A stretch of DNA of 64,000 nt from Cystobasidiomycetes sp. EMM_F5 (Eukaryota): assembly GCA_051047955.1 (NCBI GenBank), contig JBPGPT010000016.1:1-64000 (forward strand), written 5' to 3'. The notes under the pieces are model-generated. The model searched no databases, was not told the DNA's origin, and saw nothing but the letters and a program-made list of their open reading frames with translations. Made by a program: the position numbers and the translations under genes. This document shows positions 4,388 through 22,150 of the stretch, in pieces. How positions within the stretch are numbered: the stretch's first letter is position 1; each line of letters opens with the position of its first letter.

Positions 4388-6167
4388 ATGGATGACCTCC
4401 ATGAATTTGGAAAAGCCGTCACGGTGCCAGCCGACGCCGTGAGACACGTCAACGATGTGTGGACGGTTTTATACTAACGAAAACCCGTAGCTTATCAACG
4501 TTCTCATAATTGGCGCGGGTTCAAGAGGCAATGCGTATACCCAGGCCATCAAGTTTCTTGCTCGACCAGGCTGGGTCGTGAGGGCGGTAGCGGAGCCAGA
4601 CTCGCTTAAGCGAGAGGCATTCGGACGGCACTATATTTGGGGAGAAGACGCAACCGCAGGATATGGACAATCGTTTACAGGCTGGCAAGACTTCGTCGAG
4701 TGGGAGACAGCCCGAAGACGGACGCCGTCATCAGCACAGGATGCCGCCTATCAGCCGATAGATGCTTGCTTCATCTGCTGCTTAGATTCTATGCACCATC
4801 CCGCAATTACTGCGCTAGCTCCGCTGAACCTGCATATCCTCTGCGAAAAGCCGCTATGCACGTCGTTGGCACATTCCATTGACGTAGCATCCACATTGGC
4901 GAGTCACCACTCTGACAATCCACGAGCCGTCAGCATCGGCCATGTCCTTCGGTACTCCAACTTCAACATGACACTGCGTCGCCTCTTGTGCGAAGAGCTC
5001 GCTATTGGAGAAGTCATATCGATGGAGCATACCGAACCTATCGGATGGCACCATTTCCCGCACAGCTACGTACGCGGTAATTGGAGGAGAGAGTTCGAAG
5101 ATCCTGATGGACAAGGCGGCAGAGTCGGGACCCTTTTAACTAAAAGCTGTCATGATGTCGATCTCATCATGTGGCTGTTGGCAAGTCCAAGCCTCCTTAC
5201 CGGCAGCATACCTCATCTGCCTGCTACAATCACCAGCTCTGGAAGTCTACATCACTTCAGAAAGGCGCGAAAGCCGAAAGCGGCAGGTACTGCCACGAAT
5301 TGCTTATCGTGTCCTCTGAAAGACGAAGGCTGCATTCACTCTGCCAAACGATCGTATGTCGACAGACTGGCAGCGGGAATGACTCACTGGCCGTTGAACG
5401 TGGTTGTTCCTGATATTGAGGATATACTGAGAACAGCTGGGCGAGAAGCAGCCGACAAGGCTTTGCATTCGGCATTAGCGGACGATTACGATGCTACCAT
5501 AACATCCGATGATATCATAAACAGCCGCAATTGGTATGGGAGGTGTGCTTACGAGTCCAACAACAACGTCGTAGACAATCAGACGGTAGTCATTACCTGG
5601 GATGAGGAGGCATTGCCCACATCTGATCAAAGCCAGGCAGCTCGTAATGCGCGTGGTTTAGATCCTTTGTTTGGCCGTGGTCCAAAGACCGCCGTCTTTC
5701 ACATGACGTACCCGACAGAAGCCGTATGCGAGCGCCGTGGCAGGATTTATGGCACTCTTGGCGAGATATCATACGATTCGCATACCTTGACCGTCACAAG
5801 GCACGGAGAAGAAATGGTCAGGTATACTCCTAAAGGCCAGGATGTTATCGTAGGAGAAGGCCACGGAGGCGGTAAGTCTGATCCTTTCTGATGCGCCAAT
5901 GTCGACTAATCCCACACGACAGGTGATCTCGGCTTGACAAAGAATTTTCTGTCGGCGGTCAATGCTATCAAGAGCGGAGCAATGGATGCGAAAAGAGCAC
6001 AAGAACACTTTATCGGCTGTGATGTGGACGAAATCATACGTAGTCACGCCGTAGTCTTTGCGGCAGAACACGCACGTCAAACCAGGACGGTCGTTGATTG
6101 GGGTCAGTGGTGGGAGGAGAAACAGACAACCTTGATGGCAACGCATGAGCATGAAGTCCCGAATTAA
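4388..6167 (+). CDS. Gfo/Idh/MocA family NAD(P)-dependent oxidoreductase (StrI/YteT-like)
   Basis: Intron 4439-4490 gives the Rossmann motif LIIGAGSRGNAY; also HILCEKPL, HSYVRGNWRR, LLTKSCHDVD and GHGGG/D (intron 5872-5922). Confidence 0.88.
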
Positions 6168-6300
6168 GCCGGCACAGTATTGGGAAAGAAATGGTTGTGA
6201 GAAGAACATGCTTTGACATCAATATCGTTTTGGCATCTAGTATGGCGCCAGTGGCAAAATAATGGTTTGTTGCTTAAACTTTTGTATCGGGTGCGTGTTG

Positions 6301-7029
6301 CTACAAGACCATCCGGGAACGACTGTTTGCCATGCTATCAGAGCACAGATGTCAATGTGCGCACTCGATTGTGAGCCCGGATGGCTCAGACTTACGAATG
6401 AAAGTCGTGGACAGGCTGGTTAGAGGGCAGATCCTGCGCAGGTTCAAGGATATCCATATCCTGAAGATCGCCCTCTTCGTCTCTCTCAGAGACAGCTTGC
6501 TGGTGTGTCGTCGCGGCATTCTGGGCGCGCATGTCTGCTGATTGCAAGCCGGCCGCTGAGAGATCACCACTGTTGTTGAGAGCATTGAGCAGATTATTTT
6601 TTACTGCCGCATCAATGTCGATCGAAACCGGCCGCTGAAGTATCGTATGTCCGGCGCCAGCAGCTGGCGCCAGTGCTGCAGGCACAGCAGAGAGGTTGCT
6701 GGACTCAGCGTCGGAATAGCCACGGGGTCTTGCTGCACTAGACATATCGTGACTTTTGTTTACTGCAGCCCACATGCGATCTGTGATTTCAATCATCAGC
6801 TGAGACCGGACGTACAGGTCAGGAATGTATGGAACTAGGTCGTTCCCGACTTACTGTTTATATCACCAGCGCCGACGGGAAAACCCGACGACAGTGTTGC
6901 TACTCGCCTGGGGAATGACGACACAGCAGGGAGAGCTGTAGACGCTGGGAACGGGGAGAGGATGGATCTGAGTGCGGATGTGCTGTCAAAGACATTTTGT
7001 CTCCACTTGCTGATCTCCTCGGTACGCAT
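6301..7029 (-). CDS. hypothetical protein (3 exons)
   Basis: ORFs 6835-7029 and 6392-6780 join in frame through intron 6781-6854 (gtaagt..cacag). A further gtaagt intron leads to MANSRSRMVL*. Confidence 0.5.
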
Positions 7030-7559
7030 GTCAGTGCAGTATAGATACTGTAAGTCGAGTATACAGGCTTTGCCAACACCAGAGGTGCGATAGTATCGGG
7101 ATGGAGTCAGCGGCGAGTGAGCGTGGAGGAGAGGTGTGGAAAAGTGGCCTCCCCGCACCACTACAATCAGTTGGGGATTTGCGCAGTTCGGACGAATAGG
7201 CCACATCGCCCGACACGCATCGCCGCGACATCGCCATTGTTGCGCTACTCGAACTTGCAGACGTTCAAAGGGAGTCGTCAGCTGTAGCCATATTTGCTGC
7301 CGGATGCGATCCCCGACTCGCGCATCTCCACACGGTCAGTGCGGCATCAATCAGGTCTAGACGGGCGTCTTAACAGACATTCGCAAGGTTAGCAATGAAA
7401 GTGATGTGCAATGTTCGCAACAAGCTGACCAGGTCATACTGTACTTGACCGTTTATGCTGGCCGCGATCACTACCCCAGCCAAGACGTGGCTGCTGCTGA
7501 TTCAGACTGCAACAACTCTGCCAATAAGTAATCTGAAGTGACTGCCACCAGCAGACAGT

Positions 7560-9517
7560 ATGGCCTTCCTGCTCGGCCGAGGGAGCACCTCGTTCAGCTC
7601 GCGCCGTGCGGCAACATCGTCCGACCGGGCTGGTCAGTCGTCAACATTGCTTTTTGACGCCAGGCAGAGCAACGGGCTCGACGACGAAGACGAGGACGAC
7701 GAAGATGCAGAACTCAATGCTGCGTTTGGCGGCGCAGACGATGATTTTGACGGAAACCGTAGCCAGGGGCACAGTCTCGCGGCGCAGCACCGGGTAGCTT
7801 CAGCAGAAGAGGATCCAGACACATCGATGCGAGACGAGGAAGCCCAACTGCTGGATCCACGCGCCCAAGATATATCACATCGACCGCTGCTGCCCAATGA
7901 TGGTCACCGCAGCGATATTCAATTGAACTTGCCCAGTTCGGCCTCGTCACCGCCGTCGGGAGGCTACGACTTTGAAAGAGATCCCTACGAACGTGGCGCT
8001 ACTATTGTACGTTTGTCTCCGTCTGGTCGGACAAGCCCTTTCTCCGCCCTCAGTCGCAATGTCTCTACTTCAAGTCTATCGCTGCCGCTCGCTGCCCAAG
8101 CGCACCAACCTTCTAGTGGCAACCGTCGGAGTGGTAGACAGCGTGCCCGACAGCCTGCATCTGCAGGACTTTTGGGTGCAATCAGGAATCTATTGCCAGC
8201 CAGATTGCGTCCATACGGTCTCATCGGTGGCTCCGCATCATCCAGCAGAGGCAGGCGCAGAGACGGGAACGCTGATGCAGACGATGGCGATGAACTCGAT
8301 GACTGGGATGCTCCTCCGCCTACACTTCCTGGTACATATGGCGGAGGATCGCTCAACGATGGCGTGTTCAGCAATCTGATGGCGAAGCCGATCAGCTCAA
8401 GGCTGGGACCGAACGGGGAGCCTATCGATATAGTCGGCGGAGATGACGAATTGCGAGAGAAGGAGATTCCACCAGTACGTCTCATCACTTCTCTGGTATT
8501 CTAGTACTTGCTAATCTGCGTGCGCCAGGCGTATGAAATGGCGGTGTTGGACGCTGCTCCGCCGTACTTCGATACAACAGTTCACGCACCAGGACTTGGC
8601 GGTTTCGCAGGGGCGGGCGGGACTGGCCTCGATGACGTCCTTATCGAAGGTTTACCGCTCGGCAATATATTCTCCTTCTTCTGGTCTTTGTTGGTTTCGA
8701 TGAGTTTCCAGTTTGTCGGTTTCCTTCTTACGACGCTACTCTCGACATCGCACGCTGCCAAGAACGGTTCTCGAGCTGGATTGGGTATCACACTTATACA
8801 ATATGGCCTGTTTCTACAAAGCCACGAAGATGATTCCTTGCCGACAGATTTCGTTATAGGCGGTGGTGCAGTTAATGCCAGTGACGGATCCGCAGCAGGA
8901 GCAAAAGCTGGTTGGGAGTCATTCTGGGGCGGCGACCAAGGTGCTCCGCCGGCTGCAAGTGCTGCAGCAGTACCCAGTCGAGCAGCGCCAACGATGATTG
9001 ATCTATTTGGCAACTCGGGCTCTACGCCTGCATCAAATTCGACTGGGCCCATTCTCCTTGATGGGCCTGCCAGTATGTCTGGTGTCGCTAATTCCTGGCT
9101 GGCGATGGTTCTCATGATCGTAGGATGGGTACGTTAACGTTTTCATGCCTGTGTTGATACATGACTGAACACATTGCATCGTTGCAGTTTCTCCTCGTGT
9201 CGTCGACCGTTCAATATATACAGGCAATGCGATATGCGAGAGCACTTCGCGATGGCGGTTCATCACCGGCAGACGGGTCAACAGGCGGACTCTTCGCAAT
9301 CATATCCCGCTTTACTGGAGCAGAAGTTCGTCCAGAGGAGCGGACTTGGGGTTTGCCCAGTCGACCTGCACCTGTGCAGACTGAAGCACCACCGCTGCCA
9401 TTGCACAACGAGAGACCGTCAACTGGCAGCAGTTTGTTTCGGCCACTGTCAGCCTGGCCCAGCACCGCGGGTATACCTACAACAGGCAGTTTCAGCATTG
9501 GAGGTCGCTCGGTATAA
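7560..9517 (+). CDS. BSD2: Bsd2/NDFIP-like Rsp5 (Nedd4) adaptor, metal homeostasis membrane protein
   Basis: NDGVFSNLMAKP; PPAY (PPxY formed across intron 8476-8528) and APPY; GNIFSFFWSLLVSMSFQFVGFLLTTLLSTSHAAKNGSRAGLGITLIQYG; three TM segments. Confidence 0.9.
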
Positions 9518-9657
9518 ACATGTCGTGTAATTCTTTCGCATCGAAGTACGCTACATACGCAATTTTCGTGTCCAACGACTCACTGTAGCTTTCTATTCGT
9601 TGTATGCAGAGGACTCATTTCTAGGCCGTAGGTTCACTGCAGCCGTACGACGATCGT

Positions 9658-11079
9658 CTACCACTGCCATATGTTACCTCCACTCCTACCTGCGAGACTC
9701 GTACCGCCACGCAGGAGGTCGCTGATGACCTTGCCTTGCACTATTGTGGTTTGGACTATGACTGGCGCATCACGAGGACGCACACGAGCGTACCACACAC
9801 AGACTCCGTTCGGCAGCCATAAGAGCATCTGTGCACTGAATTTATGGCCTCCGATATGGGACACTTTGAATATGCCAATGTGCTTGTCGACGCTACTGTC
9901 GGTCTTTTCAGTCAGGCGTCGCAGTTGCTGATCGTGATTGAATGCAGATTGGGCAGCAACTTCTTCGAAGAAATGCGCATCGTTGCCTGACGTATCCACA
10001 TGCCAGTCGTGACCTAACGCTTCGATAGCCTCAGTCAGAGAGGCAATCAGATGCGGTGCCGTGACGTGACATCGGTTATCCCGCCTTTTGTGAGAGCATA
10101 TGAGAATTACAGCGCGATAGGGGAGCGTGTGCGCCTGGAGAAGAGACTGCGTTGGCTGCTCCTCGGATAAAGATAAATGCTCCCGGACCAGGGCTGCGGT
10201 TCTCTGCTTCGTGACGTTGCTCACAACCTGAAATTCTTGTATGGGTCAGTCACGCGTTCGTAGCAATGGAAAACCTTTCACGCATACCTTGTAGTCCGGA
10301 AATATCATGACACTTTCACCTCCGCCAGAAGTCACATCGCTCGTGTGCGATTCAAATGGCTGCATACTTCCGCACAATATACTTAGCCCATCCTGCCTTG
10401 CTTCCCCCTTATCGTCCCAGCCGTCCCCAAACCCGCCAAGGTTGGGAACATTTCGACGTTGCGTCGGATTTGATGTCGCATTCACTGTGGATTTTTGGAT
10501 TGGACGGTCTTCGTACGATTTGTTGATGCTATACGCGAGGAGATCTGCTTCGTCAGTCACGCTGTGCGGCCAGTCTGCGTATAGGAAAGGAAGTCGGGTG
10601 GCGGATCAGCATATTAGACGTGTGCGAGATGGTGGACGAGATTTGCGATACCGCAACAAGGTCACATCAGTTGACTTTTACCTATCGGCCTCAACCAATC
10701 TCAACGCACCGCTCTTGCCTGTAGCAACAATGACAGTGCGGCCAGCATTGCCCTTTAGCGACCCGAGCAGCGGCGTCGAATAATCGAGCTGATCCAGCAA
10801 TCATCAGCAGCCGCATGAGAGACATACGCAGCCCATCGCCGAAGATATAATTTTGACAGCCGCCTTACTCACATCTAATGGCTTCCAGAACCTCTCGCGG
10901 TCCCCGTCGGCTTCTTCTTCAGAGCAAGGCAGCTGGCAGCTTCGACACGCGTCGCTTAGCGATACATGCGGCACGCCCGCAGCGTCGAGACTACCTAGAA
11001 CGGATGCCTTTGGAGCCGGGCGTGCGCTTGCAGGCTGTGCTGACATGAAGTGTAGCGTTCTTTTACCAAGCGCCAACAT
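9658..11079 (-). CDS. sucrase/ferredoxin-like (Apd1/Aim32-type thioredoxin-like 2Fe-2S) protein; start uncertain (11046/11079/11142)
   Basis: LICSHKRRDNRC (C-X8-C) and SHIGGHKF (HxGGH) ligand motifs; VWYARV..IVQTTIVQGKVI..LLRGG. Confidence 0.85.
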
Positions 11080-11496
11080 CGTCCGGCTGCTAGGTATGAC
11101 GTCCACCAAAAGTGTTTGTGGGATGCCGCGCCAAGATGGCATCCTGACAGATCATTCTCCATTTTATACTCATAGGCGACTCGTATATCGGTCGCGCGTT
11201 GCCGAATGACCGATAATTCCGCTGTCCGCCGCCGCTTCATCCTTACGTTCTACCCTTTGAGTAAACCACGCATTGCAGCCGTGCAGCTGAATAATTGCTT
11301 TCTCAAGCAACGCGCGTAACTATGCAGAAACAACCGGACCCTGTCCGAAGGATGTGCCAATGCGGCGAGAATCGAAGCGTATGGCGCCCGGTGCTCAGCG
11401 TGTATCTTAGAGAGACTGGTACCGGCTGCAATAGTGCCTGGAGGGTTAATCTCACTTTACCTCCGTTCGGCTGACCAGCTAAAACAGAGAAACACC

Positions 11497-13032
11497 ATGT
11501 CGGCAACCCTACCTCAGATCGATGCCGCTACCTTTGCGTTGCTCAACGCCGATGCACAGCAGGCTTTACTTGCTGGCATCCGGTTGCTAGATAACACTCT
11601 CAATGCAGAGCTCATTGCGGCAGCTGCGACAATGTACAGCTAATTGTACAAAGTGCTACAGACAACGTCGAGCTGACGCCGCGTCCAGGACTGTCGGCAC
11701 ATATGATGCCATCACGATGTTTCCACGCGAATTGAAGCACATCTACTCTAATTATACTTCCTGGGTCTCCGTACGTCCGATTTCGTTTTCGTACCGTACA
11801 GGCTGATACAAAGAAACATCAGCTTGTTTATCTCTTCACGAGATTCTCATTTCAGATTCAACTTATATGGGGGGTAAGATTGCAGCGTTCCCGTATTGCG
11901 GCAATCCAATACAGACTGACTGCTCTCCCACCCCATCAGATGTTTGTGAGCAGTGCGTGGCGGATGACTTTCAGACAACACTGACTATTCAGAGGCAGGT
12001 ATGGTTTCATGGATGGCGAAGTAGGTCACACACCCCCTTTATACGGGAATGCCGCTGATACACTCGCCTCGTAGTGGACCAATGCGACGTGATTAAGGGA
12101 GTTCTGATTTTCCTCCCTGCTATATCAGTGAGATTTGCTCCACCACTAGGATTTGTTGGGACTAAAAAGAGCAATTCGAAATGTTTACAGCTGGTTCCAG
12201 CTCACCTTTTGTTCTCCGTTCGCGTCTGGTCAATCGTAAGCCTGTCGCGCATACGGTCGATCTTGAGCTCACGAGCGAATGTTGTCAAGTGGGCGCATAA
12301 GAAATGGGTGCTGCTCATCTGCCTTCCGCCCATTGCGGGCGAATTCATAGCAATTTGCTGGCTGGCCTACGGAACGAGATTTGAGACAGCCCCGTTCCTG
12401 GGCTCGACTGGCGCTTGTATTCCTGTCGCAACCGATGATTTCATGTTGGTGTACTGGGTAACCCCCTTTTTTTGCTTGTACAGCTATCTCTCGGCTGATG
12501 AGTCAAAATGTAGATTCCCGTAATGTCGGTGGACACTGTTCTGGTCCTTCTGGCCACAGCGAAATTGTGGACGATGAAGAAATCGTTTGGACGGTTGTCA
12601 TCAAAATCAATTATCCGTGTCTTGCTTGAACAAAGCTTGCAATACTATATCTGGAATTTTCTGGCGGTGCGGTATTCGGGTATTTGCTGAGCGAATTGTA
12701 CTGACCTGCTCATATTCATTCATATCTTCGGATAGAACATTATCAATCTGTAGGTCATTGCGGAGATCGCTTTTCTACTGATTGTGAACTGATGTGGACA
12801 CACTCTCAGAATCTGGAGCGTTTCCAACTACGGGAAACCAGACAGCTCCTTATTGTCAGGGCCTACAGCAACGATCAACATACTTCTCAGCTTGCGCTGC
12901 GCCCTGGAACTCCGGGAATTTACTAGCGAAGGAGCAACTTTCCATGATCCCCATTCGAAATCTACAGTGCCGTCAGGTGGTTCTGCAGTGCAACGCATTG
13001 GCGACATTGAGCTAAGAAGTATGGCGAAGTGA
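11497..13032 (+). CDS. 7-TM integral membrane protein, DUF6533-like / GPCR-like, paralog A (11 exons)
   Basis: Hand-spliced across 10 GT-AG introns to an open frame: YDAITMFPRELKHIY..LVYLFTR..MDQC..FSVRVWSIW..GAC..DTVLVLLA..QSLQYY..SLRCALELRE. Confidence 0.8.
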
Positions 13033-13549
13033 TTCACGGAGGCAGAACATATCGGAATATCCGGTGGCATCGCAAACCGACTTTCGTGACGATCTTGTCA
13101 GTGGCCTCGCTAGAGCGCCTAGCGGAGACTATCGAGGCATAGGCAGTCAATTACATAGCATCTGAGCATTCTGCGTGGATGTATGACTACTAGAGATTAA
13201 CACATTACCATAGCTCCGGGGCAAGTTGCGGTTGACAATACCCCTATCATACGTATGGCAGAAATTCAATGCTACCCACGACAACCAACTCTACGACTTT
13301 GGACACACGCTAGAGTTCCGTCTGCACTGCCTCGTCATTCCACGTTCTTCAGCTCCTGTACATCAGACTTCATCGCGCACTGTACCGGTACAAAGCCGGA
13401 CCTCTCGCCAACACAGCAGACTAGATGTAGCCGGGAACCAGGCGGGAAATCTCATCAACATGCTTTGCGAACGGCTTTGTCCGCGCACGGATCCGTGTGG
13501 TTGCCTTCTTAACCTTTCGCCGCAAGCTCTCTAGGCAGACGACCACGAC

Positions 13550-15092
13550 ATGCCCACCCTGACGCTGCCAGCTATCGATGAGGCGACTTTCAGCTTACTT
13601 AACAAGGATGCACAGGACGCGCTACTGAGCGGGATTCGATTGTTGGAATCCACCATCGATGCGCAGCGGGTGGGGGCTATGGCAGTAGCGTACGACATTC
13701 CCAGGCGTGACAACAATGAGCGCTCTGACGGCCGAGGGCTCATTAGGTCCATCTGTCTGTACGATGCAATCGTAATGTTTCCCCGGGAAGTCAAAACAAT
13801 CTATCCACAGTCGAGAAAAATGGTTTCCGTCAGTTCGCTGTCTCGCACGCAATATGGCGTGCCCGACTGATCCTTTTCCCGCGATTCCCCAGTTACTCTA
13901 CTTGTTCACAAGATGGTCTTTCGTAATACAAATAGTCTGGAATGTACGTGACAGCAAAAGTAGCTGGGCGAATTCATTTAGCACCATTAATACCAAATCT
14001 CCACAGATAATAGTGGGCGAGGCCACTCTTCCCAACAACTGTTCTAATTCCCATCCGCACATACGTTTGGTAGAAATGGTCGCAGCGCTGGTCTAGTAAG
14101 CCTCGCTAAGACTGCACGAGAGTCTTCTCACGCAGATTGCTCCCCGGCTGTAGCGGAGCAGTGTCGGCTCATGAATATCTTTCTCACAATATTGCCGGTC
14201 ATTTCGGTACGCAAAGGCTTTGCGGTGCAGGGGTATGATTTCGAGCTGATCGCATCGTCAAACAGTTGGTTCCCGCTCATTGCCTGTTCTTACTACGGAT
14301 ATGGTCGATTGTGGGTAGTAGTATCTCGTGATGGCAAAAGCGCCGACACTTTCTGGAGCAGTGGAATCGTCGCAAGCTGGTTCTGCTAGTCTGCGCGCCC
14401 TTTATCATTGGTGAAGCAGTCGCTGTGTTTTGGCTTGCATTTGGAGCAAGAGCAACGCCGGCGCCCTTTCTCGGAAAGACAGGGGCTTGCATACCGGTGG
14501 CCGATAACTCCTTCGTTCTGGTGTATTGGGTGCGCTGATGTCTGCTTGGGCTCAAGCACGAGCTCCATTGAAGCTTACATCTTTCAAAGCTTCCCATTAT
14601 GGCTGTCGATACTGTACTCATGGCTTTCGCTGGGTACAAGCTCAGACAAATGCTGAAGGATAGCGTTGGTATCGCTACGTCTGACTTGGTACGCCTTCTA
14701 CTGGAGCAGAGTTTGCAGTTTTTCATCTTGAATTTTCTCGCAGTAAGTCGAGTCGGCGCTTTTGGCAGCAGGTCATGATAACTAACCTGTCAAACAGAAT
14801 GTAATAAACGTGTCGGTCGTCGAAGAGCCAGCAGTAATCGGTTCATGGCTGATAATTGTGATCGAACAGGATATGGAGCGTATCGCATTATGGCAAGCCA
14901 AACAGCGCCATGCTTGCTGGTCCGGCGGCTTTGATGAGTGTTTTGCTGAGCTTGCGGTGCGTAGTAGAGCTCCGAGAATCCAGCGAAAGCGAGAGTACAT
15001 CGAACAATACGCGAAGTGCAGTGTCCGTTCGTGTCAACAATGCGCCCCTCCACAGCAACATAGAATTGCGAAGGATTGCACAATTTCGTTAG
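13550..15092 (+). CDS. 7-TM integral membrane protein, DUF6533-like / GPCR-like, paralog B (11 exons)
   Basis: Same 10 intron positions as paralog A: YDAIVMFPREVKTIY..LLYLFTR..TEQC..FLLRIWSIW..GAC..DTVLMAFA..QSLQFF..SLRCVVELRE. Confidence 0.8.
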
Positions 15093-15456
15093 TTGGTTAT
15101 GTCATACCTGGTAGAGCGGTAGTGTTGGACAGCAGGATGTTGGGGCTTCTAGTATACAGTAATGTAAACGTGGTCTTGCTATATCAGCGTGAATGCTGCC
15201 AGGGGTTGCTTACCGAAACTTACCGCCTTGGGCTTGACTCCTGCGCGCCGGATAGTCATGGGATGTGCATTTGGGCAAAACTCGCAGCCCAAGCGGTGGA
15301 GTTCCAGTGCATCTTTCCTGAATTGTGCATTGCGCAGAAGCGCCTATCCCGACCACGTCAACCCAGCTAATCCATCGCAATCAACAACACAATCTAAACC
15401 TCGTAGCCTCCTTCTGCTGCGCAGTGAATGTCAGGCGCATTACCAAGCCCGTAGCA

Positions 15457-17402
15457 ATGCAGCAACAACAGCAGCCAACAAGTAGCCTCAGTCCTGCCTC
15501 CGTTCTGCAGGCACTCGACCTCGCCGGTGGCGCAGATGGCATCAATGAAGGCGTGTTGTTTGGCGAACAATCAGGTGTGAATGATCGCAAGATATTGTCG
15601 TCCATATGTCCGTCGACGGGGGAGACACTTGGGCGCGTCAGCGTGGTCTGTTGTTCAGCCTGCAATAGCAGTCGCGACTCACGCTGACTTGGTACCTGAC
15701 CTCCAGGCTCATGAAACGGAGATCGACTCCCTCATCGCTTCTGCACATTCCGCTTACATCGTGCTGCGGATGATGCCTGCACCCGAGCGGGGCACAGTCC
15801 TGCTTACAATTCGCTCTCTTTTGGCTGAGAACAAAGTGTCCTTGGGCGCCCTCATTTCGCTTGAAATGGGGAAAGCCATTTCCGAGGGTATGGGTGAAAT
15901 ACAGGAAGCCATCGATATATGCGACTATGCCATCGGTCTCTCACCAATGCTGCCTGGCAAAGTCGTCCCAAGTGAAAGACGCGATCATTTCTTAATGGAG
16001 AGCCCAAGCCCGTTAGGCGTTGTCCTTGTCGTATCCGCCTTCAATTTCCCGCACGCAGTCATGTTCTGGAACTTCGCTCTCAGTTTTGTCTGCGGCAACG
16101 CAACTGTCTGGAAGCCCTCTGAAACGGCGGGCTTGATTGCAGTCGCAACGACAAAACTTGTTCACAAAGCTTTCCGACAGCATAAGCTTCCTGTTGCACT
16201 TCTTTCGCTGTGTTGCGGCGAGGTTTCCGTCTCTAAGGCACTAGTAGCCCACCCGCGCATCCCTCTGGTGTCCTTTACTGGATCGGAGAAGACAGGAAGG
16301 TTAGTATCAGCGGCTGTCGGCGCCAAGCTTGGTCGCAGCATACTTGAGCTGGGCGGAAACAATGCCATCGTAGTTCTTCCGGACGCCAATCAAGAAATGG
16401 CGCTCCGTACGGTCCTGTTTGGAGCGCTGGGGACTGCTGGTCAGCGATGCACGTCAACTAGGCGTCTGCTTCTACATCAGTCTATAGCAGAAGACTTCGT
16501 CGAGCGTCTCAGCAAGGCTTACGCCAATGTGATCAATACTCATCGCATCGGGGATCCACTCGACCAGGCGTATTTGATGGGTCCAGTACATACCGCTGTA
16601 GCGGTCGACGCATACAATGCGGCGTTAGTCGAAGCTCAAAAGCAGGGAGGTCGGCTACTGTGCGGAGGGAGCGCTGTCAAGCACCTCAAACAAGGCTACG
16701 AGAAGGGATTCTGGGTGCAACCCGCCATGGTCTTCCATGCTGATCGCCATCCGGAGATTATGGAAGAGGAGACTTTTGCCCCGATCCTGCGTAAGCGCCG
16801 GTGTCCCGCTATCCGATTCTTTCTTCTAATCTTCAGTTGCTCCGACGCTAGACATCTCTACGTTCAAGACCCTGGAGCAAGCGATCGACTTGAACAACCG
16901 CGTCCGCCAGGGTCTGTCATCCTCATTATTCACCACGTAAGCTCAAAACCTCTACGAACTGCATTAGCTGAACAAATACATTTGCTTCGCAGGTCAATGC
17001 AATCAGTATTCGAATGGTTAGGTCCTGCTGGATCGGATACCGGAATCTGCAACGTCAATCAGAGCACAAGTGGGGCGGAGGTGAGTGCAGTGCTGTGGAC
17101 CATCGTGTGCTAGGCCTGATGCGGCACTTTATGTGGTCAGATAGGATGCGGATTCGGCGGTAATAAGGGTAAGCCGCTGCTACAGCCATCCCTTGGTCTT
17201 CCTCAGCTGAAGCTATCATGCAACTAGCGACTGGCTGGGGACGCGAGTCTGGAGGCGACGCCTGGAAGCAGTATTGTAGCTGGAAGTCTGCGACAGTCAA
17301 TTTTGGCAATCAGCTAGGCTTGGTGGGCAATCGAAAAACAGTTGTTTGCCGTGACTGACTAATTCTTTTCGGGTTTAGGCACAAGGCTTGGTCTTTGAAT
17401 GA
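15457..17402 (+). CDS. ALDH7A1: aldehyde dehydrogenase family 7 (antiquitin / alpha-aminoadipic semialdehyde dehydrogenase-like)
   Basis: SAFNFP, WKPSE, SFTGS, LELGGNNA, catalytic AGQRCTS, EETFAPI; spliced C-terminus [37 protein letters not shown] is characteristic of ALDH7. Confidence 0.88.
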
Positions 17403-17541
17403 AGCCCGACAGGCAGAGCATAATTCATGCTTTTGCCAGCCTTTTACAAAGTCGTTAGTTATCTGTCAGAGTGACGTGAAGCATGAAGTGCAGGGTTGTG
17501 ACTGCCTTGAAGCTATCCACCTCCATTATGAGCGAATGCTG

Positions 17542-18929
<1,388 letters not shown>

Positions 18930-19099
18930 AGTGCCGACCTCAGTATCTGTTGTCGTATTGCCAATCCGTTTTTCGTCGTCCAATTCCAGCACCAGCCAAA
19001 TTAGGTGGCAAACATCATTGGTTGCATTAGGCTCACACGCTGGCATGCTATGGTAACAACAACACGCAGAGAGTGGTATCATGACTGTTCTTCCCGACT

Positions 19100-20151
19100 T
19101 CATTTCTGTATCCGCTCAAACCGCCAGAAGTCAACGAGAATATCGAGGCTCGCTTTCTTATGAAACGCCATAGACCTGTGTTTCAGACACAGTCAGCCTA
19201 AGGACAGCCGATCTCCAATAAGGTCTCCTCACTTTGGTAGATCATACCGCATCTCCGCGAGTACTTGTCCTTTGAAGCCAAACTGAGCGGCTCGCTTCAT
19301 GATGTAGTCCCGCGTACTTGTCTTGTGCAGCGAGTATATCGAGGTCCGTGCAATCTGTGTGATACGCAATAGCCATCATCGCAAATTGATTGATACACTA
19401 TCGTGCGAATTGCTTACCTTAGTCGCAACTTCAAGAAAGACCATATCTATTCCCTTAACTTTGGTACCAAATGGCGCGTTCTGGATCTAAGCCTGGACTT
19501 CAGCTTTCATTGCGTGTCGAAATATACATTAGCGTACGACTGAGGAAATGAAATCAGCCAAGCTAATCAGGCATGCGGATGAGGCTGCTCACCAGTATCG
19601 AATCCACCAACTATTATAAAACGGTTCAACACAACGTAAGCTGTTGTGTTTTCAGTCGATAGAAAAGTATGCACCTTTCAACCTGTCCAGTAATGGGCAC
19701 CCGTCCTCGTTCAGCTGCGCGACATCGGCTTGAATAAAGTCAATTTCGCTGTCGACCTCTGCCTCCGCCACATTCTCGAGAGCAGTCGCAAGAGCGGCCT
19801 CGTCGACATCTACTCCCAGAACATAGCTTTCCGTTGTAAACATCAGTCTTGGGGGGCCGTCTTGCTCATGTAGCGGTCATTCACCTGGCACCACATATGT
19901 TTGCAGCGATTGAGAGGATGCCGCAACCGCAGCCCAAGTCGAGGATCTTCTTGTCGGCAATCTCATCGTACGAACTATGCGCCGTAAAGAGCATGCGAGA
20001 AGCTAGGTGCGAGGATGTAGGGTACTGAATCCCTAGACTTCAGCCTGAATACCATGGTCGACGATGGACCACCGACCTGTTCCAGTATTGGATTGGCTTC
20101 AGCAAAGCGGCGGAGAGGCTGCAAAGCACTTTCAAGATCTTTGAGACGCAT
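19100..20151 (-). CDS. METTL5: METTL5-like rRNA N6-adenosine methyltransferase
   Basis: MRLKDLESALQ..LEQYPTSSHLASRMLF, SAM motif ILDLGCGCGILSI, GVDVD, FDTVIQNAPFGTK..GIDMVFL, YSLHKTSTR, AEMRYDLPK..FHKK..VDFWRF*. Confidence 0.92.
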
Positions 20152-21259
20152 GACTTCGCTTTGTAGCACCCGAAGGCCAGATGGGCAATATGCAAGCAGG
20201 AAATGGTTCGGCGAAGCAGTTCGGACGTCACCACGTGATATCGTTGTCTCACACCCATCGATGGTGACTTGTGCCCGTCGCACCGGACCAGCAAACTACT
20301 GTTGCATACACAAAGAATATTCGACAAATATAACCTCCCCGGCCTGCGTATCTCGATAGCCAACGACACTTGACAAGGTGGGTTCAATGTCATGGCATCG
20401 GTACGTAGATGCCTCCCAGTCTCTCACGCTCTCCAGTCTTCTCTTGGGCCAAATGACAAGTAATACTAGTCTGACAAATACGACCTATCTGTCTCGACAT
20501 GCGACCGCAGAGCAGTGAAGACATTTTAAGACGACCCGGAGACTTCGCTACGCCTTGGATATATGCACGTGAATCATAATGCCCAACATCAAAGCTGAGT
20601 GACGCGTATGCTGCAAACAGTCAGCGACAGTGAGCGGATGGCTGCGTCCATCAGAAGCATCCTTATCCCTGGAGAGAAGTAGTTACGCTAATTTAGTTGA
20701 TGCTGCAAGTCGATTTGCGGAACGGTAAGGGCAACGCCATCCGATACATCGTTGTCCTGTCTTAGCAATATCAGCATCGTTCTGCTTTATCGTCGTGACG
20801 TGTTGTCGCCGGCATCTCCGCGCCAGCTGCGCTGTTAAGCGCCTGGGAAACTGATCTAAATCTATGAAAGACGCGGGATTCTCGGATGTCAGCATTTGTC
20901 AGCTTCCGTGCGCAAAAGTCAATGTCGTTGGATAGAGCTAGGGTCGAGATTAGCAGATCGACTCAAAGTCTGCTCATGTTATTTTGGCAGGAAACGAACG
21001 AAATGCGCAGTAGTCCAGATGTCCGATGCTAGCTACAGTCTGGCAGGCGCCAACTTGGTGACGTCAGCACACTTCTGCAGCTTTCTCTCGCTGTTGCAGA
21101 GAAATCTTGTTCAACGGGCAACGAGGAGCCTTTGCAGCAGTTCACGCGTCCGTATCGAGTGGCTGGCCCTTTTCGTATAGCGCGTTCTGTATATTGAGTC
21201 CTTCAGTTGGGGTCTACGTACTGCACGCCCCAGCTTGTCAGCTTTGACCTTCTCTGTGA

Positions 21260-21296
21260 GTCGCGTCGCGTCGCGATGGTCTGTTTACGTCACGTG
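21260..21296. promoter_or_regulatory. candidate promoter elements: (GTCGC)3 repeat, plus CRE TTACGTCA overlapping E-box CACGTG
   Basis: gtcgcgtcgcgtcgcg at 21260-21275; TTACGTCA 21285-21292 and CACGTG 21291-21296, about 105-140 nt upstream of ATG 21402. Confidence 0.3.
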
Positions 21297-21401
21297 TGCG
21301 AACCCTTGGTCCGCGAAGGCCAACATCGAGAGTGATGCCAGCTGTGCGGTTGATCCCGCACTGACAGCTCTATCCTTCCTACCATTCAAGAAATAGACAT
21401 C

Positions 21402-22150
21402 ATGCCCACCAAGCGCACTGCCAATGACAGCGAAGATGACGAGTTCCAGCCGTCAGTTGCTGCTGCTGCTGGGCCCTCTGGAACCAAAAAGGCAAAGACC
21501 GCGTCTACGTCCCAAGCAGGTGCTTCAAACGATGCATCTAGACCCTACACTCGTGCAGTCCTTCTTGCAAAAACGCATGAGCAGCTGGTCGAGATCTGCC
21601 TCAGCCTCCAGTCTGAGCCCAAAGGTCGGGCAGTGGTTGAGCTAACCCCTGCACAGATCAAGGAGAAGGCAGATGTAAATAATCTACTCCTTCACCTCTC
21701 GCCGCTTCCGCTGCCTTGGTATTGACGACACATATCGGTATTACGCAACACAGGCTGCCAGGAAACTCATGGTCAACCAGATCGGTAAATCGATGAAATG
21801 GACAGCTTCCTGCAAGACCGGCACCGCCAAGTGGAGCGTGCGTCTAGACTGTATCCCCCTATCTGTTTGTCATTGCTCACATTGAGGGCTGTTTCATAGT
21901 ATGAGGCCTTCGTCTCAAACGAGGCCGTATTTCTAGAAATGTTTGAGCTCAAGGCTTTCAAAGGCAAGCAGATGAAGATGAAACGCGAAGTATTCCAGGA
22001 CGAAGTCGGCACGCCGGTTGGCCAAGTCAGATACGACTCGCTGTCCATCACCAGTGCGGAAGTATGTCACATCGTGGCATACTATAGGTCACAATCAGAT
22101 GGAATGCTGAAGATCTTCACTTCAAGGTATCCGGATCGTACGGCAAGTAA
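21402..22150 (+). CDS. conserved fungal hypothetical protein (about 4 exons)
   Basis: ATG with NLS-like N-terminus (MPTKR..KKAK). Introns near 21674-21753 and 21838-21899 give an open frame QIGKSMKWTASCKTGTAKWS-YEAFV..VRYDSLSIT; C-terminus VSGSYGK*. Confidence 0.7.

Follow-up and report, generated by a model that had tools for sequence, protein, structure and literature searches.

Two neighbouring genes of Cystobasidiomycetes sp. EMM_F5, located on contig JBPGPT010000016.1 (assembly GCA_051047955.1) within the 64,000 nucleotides analysed here (positions 1 to 64,000, referred to as the window), were found to form a diverged tandem pair, the spliced products of which could be receptors of the kind represented by the DUF6533 proteins of basidiomycetes and by Gpe1 of Ustilago maydis. 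Taken as a whole, this reading of the pair as divergent DUF6533/Gpe1-like seven-helix receptors stands, in our estimate, at about an even chance. The family is already known to be large, it has been described, and its receptor nature has been published; what is new here is a divergent paralogous pair. Two further members alone would not be surprising, as the family exceeds a hundred copies in some mushrooms, with 187 DUF6533 proteins among the 12,133 genes of Phlebia radiata being given in the available part of PMC13563720. If the reading is true, however, this kind of receptor, for which the first ligand and the first link to a G-protein were reported only in 2026 according to the accessible text of PMC13652807, reaches yeasts of the Pucciniomycotina in a form that is missed by automatic annotation and by Pfam, and receptor surveys which are based on public fungal proteomes undercount it.

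Gene models and exon chains

Both exon chains were rebuilt by coordinates from the plus strand of the window, to which all positions given below refer unless a strand is stated, and they are known from the DNA sequence alone. Gene 1 (11497..13032) reads from ATG to TGA in 11 exons (11497-11633, 11689-11770, 11823-11873, 11940-11945, 11993-12020, 12075-12127, 12191-12235, 12290-12457, 12514-12666, 12736-12749 and 12810-13032), which join into a coding sequence of 960 nt for 319 amino acids with a single terminal stop. Gene 2 (13550..15092) reads from ATG to TAG, likewise in 11 exons (13550-13689, 13747-13828, 13893-13943, 14007-14012, 14074-14095, 14154-14206, 14266-14310, 14362-14529, 14590-14742, 14798-14811 and 14870-15092), with a coding sequence of 957 nt for 318 amino acids. 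The listing of open reading frames (ORFs) splits each gene into fragments. An earlier inspection of the same DNA (the original prediction) had claimed that two such shattered genes each splice into 11 exons with all 10 introns at the same positions, and this was confirmed by the rebuild. All 20 introns have GT..AG borders and a length of 47-69 nt (47-69 nt in gene 1 and 51-64 nt in gene 2), and the two genes agree in intron positions and phases (2,0,0,0,1,0,0,0,0,2). Nine of the 11 exons are equal in length, the other two being exon 1 (137 nt in gene 1 vs 140 nt in gene 2) and exon 5 (28 vs 22 nt). Of the 20 introns, 11 have a CTRAY branch motif in their final 25 nt. In both genes the start codon is the first ATG past an upstream stop, and the N-termini of the two proteins align from residue 1.

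Each gene contains two microexons. Exon 4 has a length of 6 nt and codes for Met-Phe in gene 1 (11940..11945, flanked by AG and GTGAGC) and, at the same position in the chain, for Ile-Ile in gene 2 (14007..14012, flanked by CACAG and GTGGGC). The introns surrounding it are 66 and 47 nt long in gene 1, each with its own CTGAC branch motif, and 63 and 61 nt long in gene 2. As the frame survives its skipping, exon 4 is the least certain element of both models; skipping would merge the introns to 119 nt (gene 1) or 130 nt (gene 2), outside the range of 47-69 nt. Exon 10, with a length of 14 nt, codes for N-I-I-N plus two bases in gene 1 (12736..12749), inside the sixth transmembrane helix (TM6; the other helices are abbreviated accordingly), and for N-V-I-N plus two bases in gene 2 (14798..14811). 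By the intron phases this exon is required for the frame.

The genes are separated by an intergenic spacer of 517 nt (13033..13549), presumed to hold the 3′ end of gene 1 and the promoter of gene 2. A single fused gene was considered and ruled out, because gene 1 ends in a TGA, and gene 2 begins with a separate ATG and with an N-terminus related by homology to the one of gene 1. An antisense gene was rejected as well: the 170-amino-acid stop-to-stop ORF at 14277-14789 on the minus strand lies opposite exons 7-9 of gene 2, which are conserved, and was interpreted as their shadow.

Purifying selection on both genes

The two proteins are identical in 166 of 322 aligned columns (52%). Between the paralogues, identity at codon positions 1, 2 and 3 amounts to 0.60, 0.75 and 0.27, and a saturated pS of 0.91 stands against a pN of 0.32. 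The ten intron pairs all give alignment identities of 0.46-0.58, compared with 0.46-0.50 for shuffled introns. Identity at third codon positions and in introns is thus no better than chance, yet the protein has been maintained, so that the exon chain is under purifying selection: an old tandem duplication has kept the protein while neutral sites were randomised. Neither splice sites that were cherry-picked nor a pair of pseudogenes would give this pattern, and both are for this reason unlikely. The earlier description of the pair as duplicated and diverged was thus borne out, and from these comparisons there is little doubt that both are real protein-coding genes. A tblastn search of the window with both spliced proteins yielded no third copy (all other matches having E above 1).

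Membrane topology and conserved residues

By a hydropathy window, rather than by a trained topology predictor, each protein exhibits seven peaks, in agreement with the seven hydrophobic segments that had been described originally. Strong hydrophobicity is seen for TM3, TM4 and TM5; the peaks of TM1, TM2, TM6 and TM7 are lower, and these helices include polar residues. Gene 1 codes in addition for an extra amphipathic N-terminal stretch with further hydropathy peaks. Lysine and arginine, counted like all loop charges and segment identities in this study within segment borders of our own, make up a fraction of about 0.20-0.22 of the three inner loops as predicted (8 and 9 of 40 residues), compared with 0.06-0.09 for the predicted outer parts (5 and 7 of about 80 residues in the N-terminus and the three outer loops). 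As this bias follows the positive-inside pattern, it points to an N-out/C-in topology with both conserved cysteines on the outer face. Both products are, judging from hydropathy and charge, very probably seven-helix N-out membrane proteins, in which the N-terminus, about 36 residues long, faces outward and the C-tail inward.

Two cysteines are invariant between the paralogues. The first lies at the outer end of TM3 (Cys105 of gene 1, codon 12083..12085, in DQC; Cys104 of gene 2, codon 14162..14164, in EQC), the second in the loop between TM4 and TM5, that is, the second extracellular loop (ECL2), within GACIPVA in both proteins (Cys177, codon 12416..12418, 72 residues from Cys105; Cys176, codon 14488..14490). 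Whether the two might fall on opposite faces of the membrane had been raised as a check on the original prediction; by the charge bias both are on the same predicted outer face. An arginine is found at the inner end of TM3, 25 residues past Cys105 (Arg130 of gene 1, codon 12221..12223, in RVWSIW; Arg129 of gene 2, codon 14296..14298, in RIWSIW). SLRC..ELRE occurs in both proteins, and the first extracellular loop (ECL1) includes RQVWFHGWRM in gene 1 vs KWSQRWST in gene 2, so that every motif listed earlier is present in the spliced products. Exon 2 carries the motif YDAITMFPRELKHIY in gene 1 and YDAIVMFPREVKTIY in gene 2. Across exon 10, TM6 reads NFLANIINLIWSV in gene 1 vs NFLANVINVIWSV in gene 2, following the pattern RxLLEQSLQ..NFLAN with an invariant LLEQSLQ block. 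Neither a DRY nor an NPxxY motif is visible in either protein.

Two further stretches were observed near the ends of the proteins. Before TM1, exon 1 (11497-11631 and 13550-13687) codes for a conserved acidic amphipathic stretch, LP.ID.ATF.LLN.DAQ.ALL.GIRLL, with 24 of 37 residues being identical; it may form an outer lid helix. The C-tails, although diverged, share a short block, I-E-L-R, located a few residues ahead of the stop (12990-13029 and 15050-15089), which could be a sorting or partner-binding signal.

Probable relationship to DUF6533 proteins and Gpe1

Pfam was scanned at E up to 10 with 13 contiguous pieces of the two genes, each a single exon or a read-through. PF20151 (DUF6533; gathering cut-off 24.1 bits) was the only family matched by all three exon-2 pieces (14.7-18.0 bits), and it was matched by none of the ten other pieces; the other Pfam rows in those scans were at chance level (DUF5871 with E 0.11, Mit_proteolip with E 0.21). 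Exon 2 of gene 1 (11689..11770), which codes for the end of TM1 and the first inner loop and includes D52 and E60, matched with E 0.033 and 14.7 bits over profile positions 11-30 of 46. Exon 2 of gene 2 (13747..13828) matched with E 0.0032 and 18.0 bits over positions 9-30 of 46, and with E 0.035 in a longer read-through piece. The resemblance to DUF6533 that had been proposed from a motif was therefore recovered in exon 2 of both genes (E 0.0032-0.035), but as a weak signal below the cut-off. What we take to be the usual residues before the conserved glutamate of DUF6533 differ from the FPRE of these genes. No Ste2, Ste3, Git3, Pth11-type, 7tm_1 or serpentine profile was matched by any of the 13 pieces (pieces rather than whole proteins) at E up to 10, which fits the earlier statement that the proteins do not look like Ste3, Gpr1 or Pth11 receptors.

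The match to PF20151 covers residues of about 50-72, from TM1 into the first intracellular loop (ICL1), within a seven-helix N-out layout such as that described for SNB1 of Coprinopsis cinerea. In the available text of PMC10949477, SNB1 is a DUF6533 protein with seven helices and an N-out/C-in orientation which is needed for fruiting-body patterning, and four snb1 paralogues are given for C. cinerea. The same text quotes InterPro for DUF6533 (PF20151 / IPR045340) being specific for basidiomycetes; the host of the present pair belongs to the Pucciniomycotina and hence to the Basidiomycota, consistent with this range. In the accessible part of PMC8955403, DUF6533 is merely listed as a domain.

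The pair had been described as uncharacterised receptors by the original prediction; for the family this no longer fully applies, as the available portions of PMC13652807 and PMC10949477 present Gpe1 (formerly Pit1, UMAG_01374) as a peptide-activated G-protein-coupled receptor (GPCR) and SNB1 as having a role in fruiting bodies. According to the former (PMC13652807; 2026), a peptide released from Pit2, an effector encoded by a neighbouring gene, activates Gpe1 of U. maydis, which in a yeast reporter acts through Gpa1. Foldseek links Gpe1 to proteins of basidiomycetes, many of which carry DUF6533, with 0.8 as the best TM-score. The residues named there as conserved include E51, E59, K83-Y84, the "3.50-like" R133 at the inner end of TM3, a pair in TM6 (NN in Gpe1, DG in the others) and Q289; a C108-C178 disulfide is predicted, and R133A, which abolished activation, as well as variants in TM6 led to its loss.

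Several of these residues have possible counterparts in the present pair when compared by published residue numbers and spacing, rather than by alignment or fold. As far as the accessible text of PMC13652807 allows the comparison, the cysteine pair of TM3 and ECL2 (C105-C177 in gene 1 and C104-C176 in gene 2) corresponds to C108-C178, with a spacing of 72 vs 70 residues, and the arginine at the inner end of TM3, 25 residues past the TM3 cysteine (R130/R129), corresponds by spacing to R133. At positions similar to those of E51/E59 and K83-Y84 there are an acidic pair in TM1 (D52/E60), eight residues apart as in Gpe1, and a basic-aromatic pair in TM2 (R80-F81; R-W in gene 2). From the exon-2 matches and these positions we infer homology to DUF6533 and Gpe1, and membership of the DUF6533 superfamily appears probable.

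Divergence between the paralogues

Identity between the two proteins is distributed unevenly over the segments. It is high in TM6 (20/26), ECL2 (15/22), the third extracellular loop (ECL3; 6/9), the N-terminus (24/37) and TM2 (13/21), and low in the C-tail (11/42), ECL1 (3/12) and the third intracellular loop (ICL3; 3/17). The original prediction held that the paralogues may differ in ligand specificity as ECL1 diverges. The divergence of ECL1 stands, but the other outer parts (N-terminus, ECL2 and ECL3) are well kept, and the strongest divergence is found on the inner side, in ICL3 and the C-tail. Because the outer face is mostly conserved and the inner face most diverged, the idea of different ligands is weakened, and the sequences point to paralogues that differ in coupling or regulation rather than in their ligand. 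The contrast of a conserved outer face and TM6 with a diverged ICL3 and tail amounts to a small natural experiment, which could help to map the parts responsible for ligand binding and those for inward coupling.

Genomic surroundings and public gene models

The flanks were surveyed by listing ORFs of at least 90 amino acids within 5000-22000 and scanning ten selected ORFs with Pfam. This assigned a GFO/IDH/MocA oxidoreductase (GFO_IDH_MocA; 4491-5888, plus strand), an exon of a Bsd2/NEDD4-adaptor-like gene (Bsd2; 8505-9134, plus strand) and an exon of a sucrase/ferredoxin-like gene (Suc_Fer-like; 9661-10245, minus strand), the latter two upstream of gene 1, as well as an aldehyde dehydrogenase (ALDH; Aldedh) from about 15704 on the plus strand. 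No functional link between the pair and these housekeeping-type neighbours is apparent among the ten selected ORFs of at least 90 amino acids. The Suc_Fer-like gene is oriented divergently from gene 1, and the two may share the intergenic region 10606-11496 that lies between them.

Among public proteins of 99-2000 amino acids, the proteome of this genome included, none with exon 8 of gene 1 turned up. A HMMER search with exons 6-8 (see below) likewise gave nothing related; it should also have recovered gene 2, had this been modelled, as the exon 8 sequences of the two genes are 61% identical. Both genes appear to be missing from the public models or to be modelled without exon 8.

The neighbouring ALDH gene shows how the public models of this genome behave at short introns. 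Its exon is 100% identical to the public model P0001 of a Cystobasidiomycetes isolate (Basidiomycota, Pucciniomycotina), while the next-best relatives share 67% and then 65% identity (Cystobasidium minutum); judged by this comparison, there is no close sequenced relative of this Pucciniomycotina yeast in the database searched. The gene, ALDH7-like, was mapped to 15704-17322 (plus strand) by homology to the protein P0003, as were its introns at 16791-16851, 16937-16992, 17081-17140 and 17169-17227. With lengths of 61, 56, 60 and 59 nt, GTAAGC or GTGAGT donors and YAG acceptors, these four introns are of the same type as those of the receptor-like genes. Splicing them restores the conserved C-terminus of P0003, at 68% identity over 460 aligned residues and with no stop. 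P0001 follows this homology-guided chain for 361 amino acids; past that point it translates the unspliced 61-nt intron 16791-16851 and ends in a nonsense C-terminus. In the region studied, the public models of this genome fail at short introns and microexons. Upstream of the start of P0001, at 15481-15681 (plus strand), a weak tblastn match (E 0.002) of P0003 to the N-terminal part of ALDH was observed, and P0001 may lack its first exon or exons as well.

Proposed mode of action and alternative explanations

By analogy with Gpe1, a mode of action can be proposed for the pair, which would go back to an old tandem duplication in a yeast of the Cystobasidiomycetes (Pucciniomycotina). The conserved N-terminal helix, ECL2 and ECL3 would form an outer ligand site, with a putative Cys105-Cys177 disulfide tying ECL2 to the top of TM3. 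Binding of a ligand, presumably at the plasma membrane, would shift the conserved TM6 (RxLLEQSLQ..NFLAN) against the arginine of TM3 (R130/R129), and the inner face would then engage G-alpha or another transducer. Owing to the diverged ICL3 and C-tail, the paralogues would differ in how they couple or are regulated. Receptor function and G-protein coupling are what we infer here by analogy with one characterised relative, and that both proteins are true G-protein-coupled receptors is put forward as a tentative proposal about which doubt prevails.

Several observations weigh against the reading of the pair as DUF6533/Gpe1-like receptors. The DUF6533 scores lie below the cut-off of 24.1 bits and the aligned part is limited to profile positions 9-30 of 46, the two matches are not independent, as the genes are paralogues, and the exon 3 pieces alone, where the rest of the domain would lie, gave no Pfam match. 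Homologues were searched for with single exons or read-through pieces of 51-127 amino acids. A HMMER search with the read-through of exons 6-8 (127 amino acids, 39 of them encoded by introns) against 1,835,955,588 representative proteins yielded no match at E up to 0.001; a word-index search with exon 8 gave six scored candidates, none of them at E up to 0.01, and a profile of exon 9 of both genes gave 214, none at E up to 10. Scans of metagenome contigs with the exon 8 and exon 9 profiles led to 93 and 150 pattern matches, of which none was confirmed. Sequence searches of the PDB were at chance level at best (a steroid reductase with E 0.15, designed ankyrins with 0.27 and AP-3 beta with about 3). 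In a language-model atlas, the nearest clusters to the TM3-TM5 piece were fragments of nematode serpentine and rhodopsin-like GPCRs at scores of 0.84-0.89, which we regard as a lead only: the scores are below 0.9, and the ten best family-bearing matches fall into one clan, as they do for a third of shuffled proteins. For an N-terminal piece, taken from gene 2, the atlas gave unrelated unnamed actinobacterial clusters (0.89-0.90). Compared with the accessible text on Gpe1, the candidate pair of TM6 is E229-Q230 (E228-Q229 in gene 2), acidic plus polar and in a register set without alignment, where Gpe1 has NN and DUF6533 relatives have DG, and the predicted TM7 has no glutamine to match Q289. 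Finally, many seven-helix "GPCR classes" of fungi are, in the part of PMC13308352 available, without proof of G-protein coupling, and some of their members act in vacuolar (amino-acid) transport.

The last point leads to the alternative that survives best, although we consider it unlikely, namely that the two products are seven-helix proteins of the DUF6533 kind but not GPCRs, acting instead as a transporter or carrier, as a membrane-organising or trafficking factor, or as a sensor working through arrestin-like or other partners. In the literature as available, a single relative by fold, Gpe1, has shown coupling, and this in a yeast reporter; SNB1 has a developmental phenotype of which the mechanism is not known, and for several fungal "GPCR" classes coupling evidence is lacking, with vacuolar amino-acid transport described for some (PMC13308352). 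The weak hydrophobicity of TM1, TM2, TM6 and TM7 with their polar residues would fit a transport path, too. On the other hand, the pattern tested by mutation in Gpe1, so far as the accessible text describes it, recurs here in the outer cysteine pair, in the arginine of TM3, in the conserved TM6 and in an outer N-terminus that is short, and the nearest atlas clusters are of the GPCR type, with the reservation made above.

A somewhat smaller probability is given to a lineage-specific seven-helix family without common descent with DUF6533 or Gpe1, for which the exon-2 motif YD..FP.E..IY and the spacing of cysteines and arginine would be convergent or due to chance; the proteins could still be receptors, of a new class. 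No relative surfaced in any of the exon-wise protein or metagenome searches, the Pfam score stays under the gathering cut-off, and TM6 has EQ rather than DG or NN, all of which speaks for such a family. However, queries of 51-127 amino acids cannot reach relatives of 25-30% identity at database-wide E-values, and with the closest relative being just 65-67% identical in the conserved ALDH, fast-evolving membrane proteins are expected to be out of reach. Moreover, the sole Pfam family that responded is the one that the protein layout and the taxonomic position of the host would lead one to expect.

That the genes are decaying pseudogenes, or that the exon chain arose artificially because splice sites were chosen so as to leave the frame open, is highly improbable: although the models come from DNA sequence, both genes are absent from the public proteome and two microexons per gene (6 and 14 nt, the 6-nt one being optional for the frame) are unusual, the two copies keep one 11-exon frame without an internal stop despite saturated synonymous sites and introns, the 14-nt exon codes for N-[IV]-I-N in both, and public annotation is unreliable at nearby introns, as the ALDH model agrees with the homology-guided one for 361 amino acids before its intron read-through.

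Going beyond the reading of the pair as DUF6533/Gpe1-like receptors, one may speculate that the two genes represent either a Pucciniomycotina branch of Gpe1-type receptors beyond the reach of sequence searches or an independent new class of fungal receptors with class-A-like hallmarks, namely a disulfide between TM3 and ECL2, an arginine switch in TM3 and an invariant TM6, by which a leaf-surface yeast would sense an external peptide or a plant-derived cue through a shared outer ligand site and different coupling at the inner face. As a whole this picture is improbable.

Comparison with known seven-helix proteins

Seventeen classes of fungal GPCRs, among them Ste2, Ste3, Git3, Stm1-like, cAMP-receptor-like, RGS-type, PAQR, opsins and Pth11, are distinguished in the accessible part of PMC13308352. 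The present pair resembles them in consisting of seven-helix membrane proteins proposed as sensors, and differs in that none of the Pfam domains of those classes was matched. A DUF6533 class is not among the classes named in that part, nor was the word DUF6533 found there by full-text search. Because no such class is named, the Gpe1/DUF6533 kind would lie outside the seventeen-class scheme.

With class A (rhodopsin-like) GPCRs the two proteins share the cysteine pair of TM3 and ECL2 and the arginine at the inner end of TM3. They differ from this class by the lack of a 7tm_1 or serpentine match in Pfam, of a GPCR match in the PDB searches and of DRY and NPxxY motifs.

The likeness to DUF6533 proteins such as SNB1, as far as these are covered by the texts available, extends over the basidiomycete host, a length of about 300 amino acids or more, seven helices in an N-out/C-in orientation, the motif at TM1-ICL1 and a family that is prone to duplication. 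What sets the pair apart from them is the Pfam score below the cut-off, EQ instead of DG in TM6 and a Pucciniomycotina yeast as host.

Gpe1 is the larger protein, with 435 amino acids, a C-tail of 120 amino acids and an ECL2 of 38 residues in the accessible text of PMC13652807, compared with 319 and 318 amino acids here, of which about 40 fall to the tail and about 22 to ECL2. The Gpe1 gene adjoins pit2, the gene of its ligand; the survey of the flanks of the present pair covered ORFs of at least 90 amino acids within 5000-22000. Beside the residues discussed above, the two systems have in common the seven helices and an outer N-terminus of nearly the same length, about 36 amino acids in the present pair and 35 in Gpe1.

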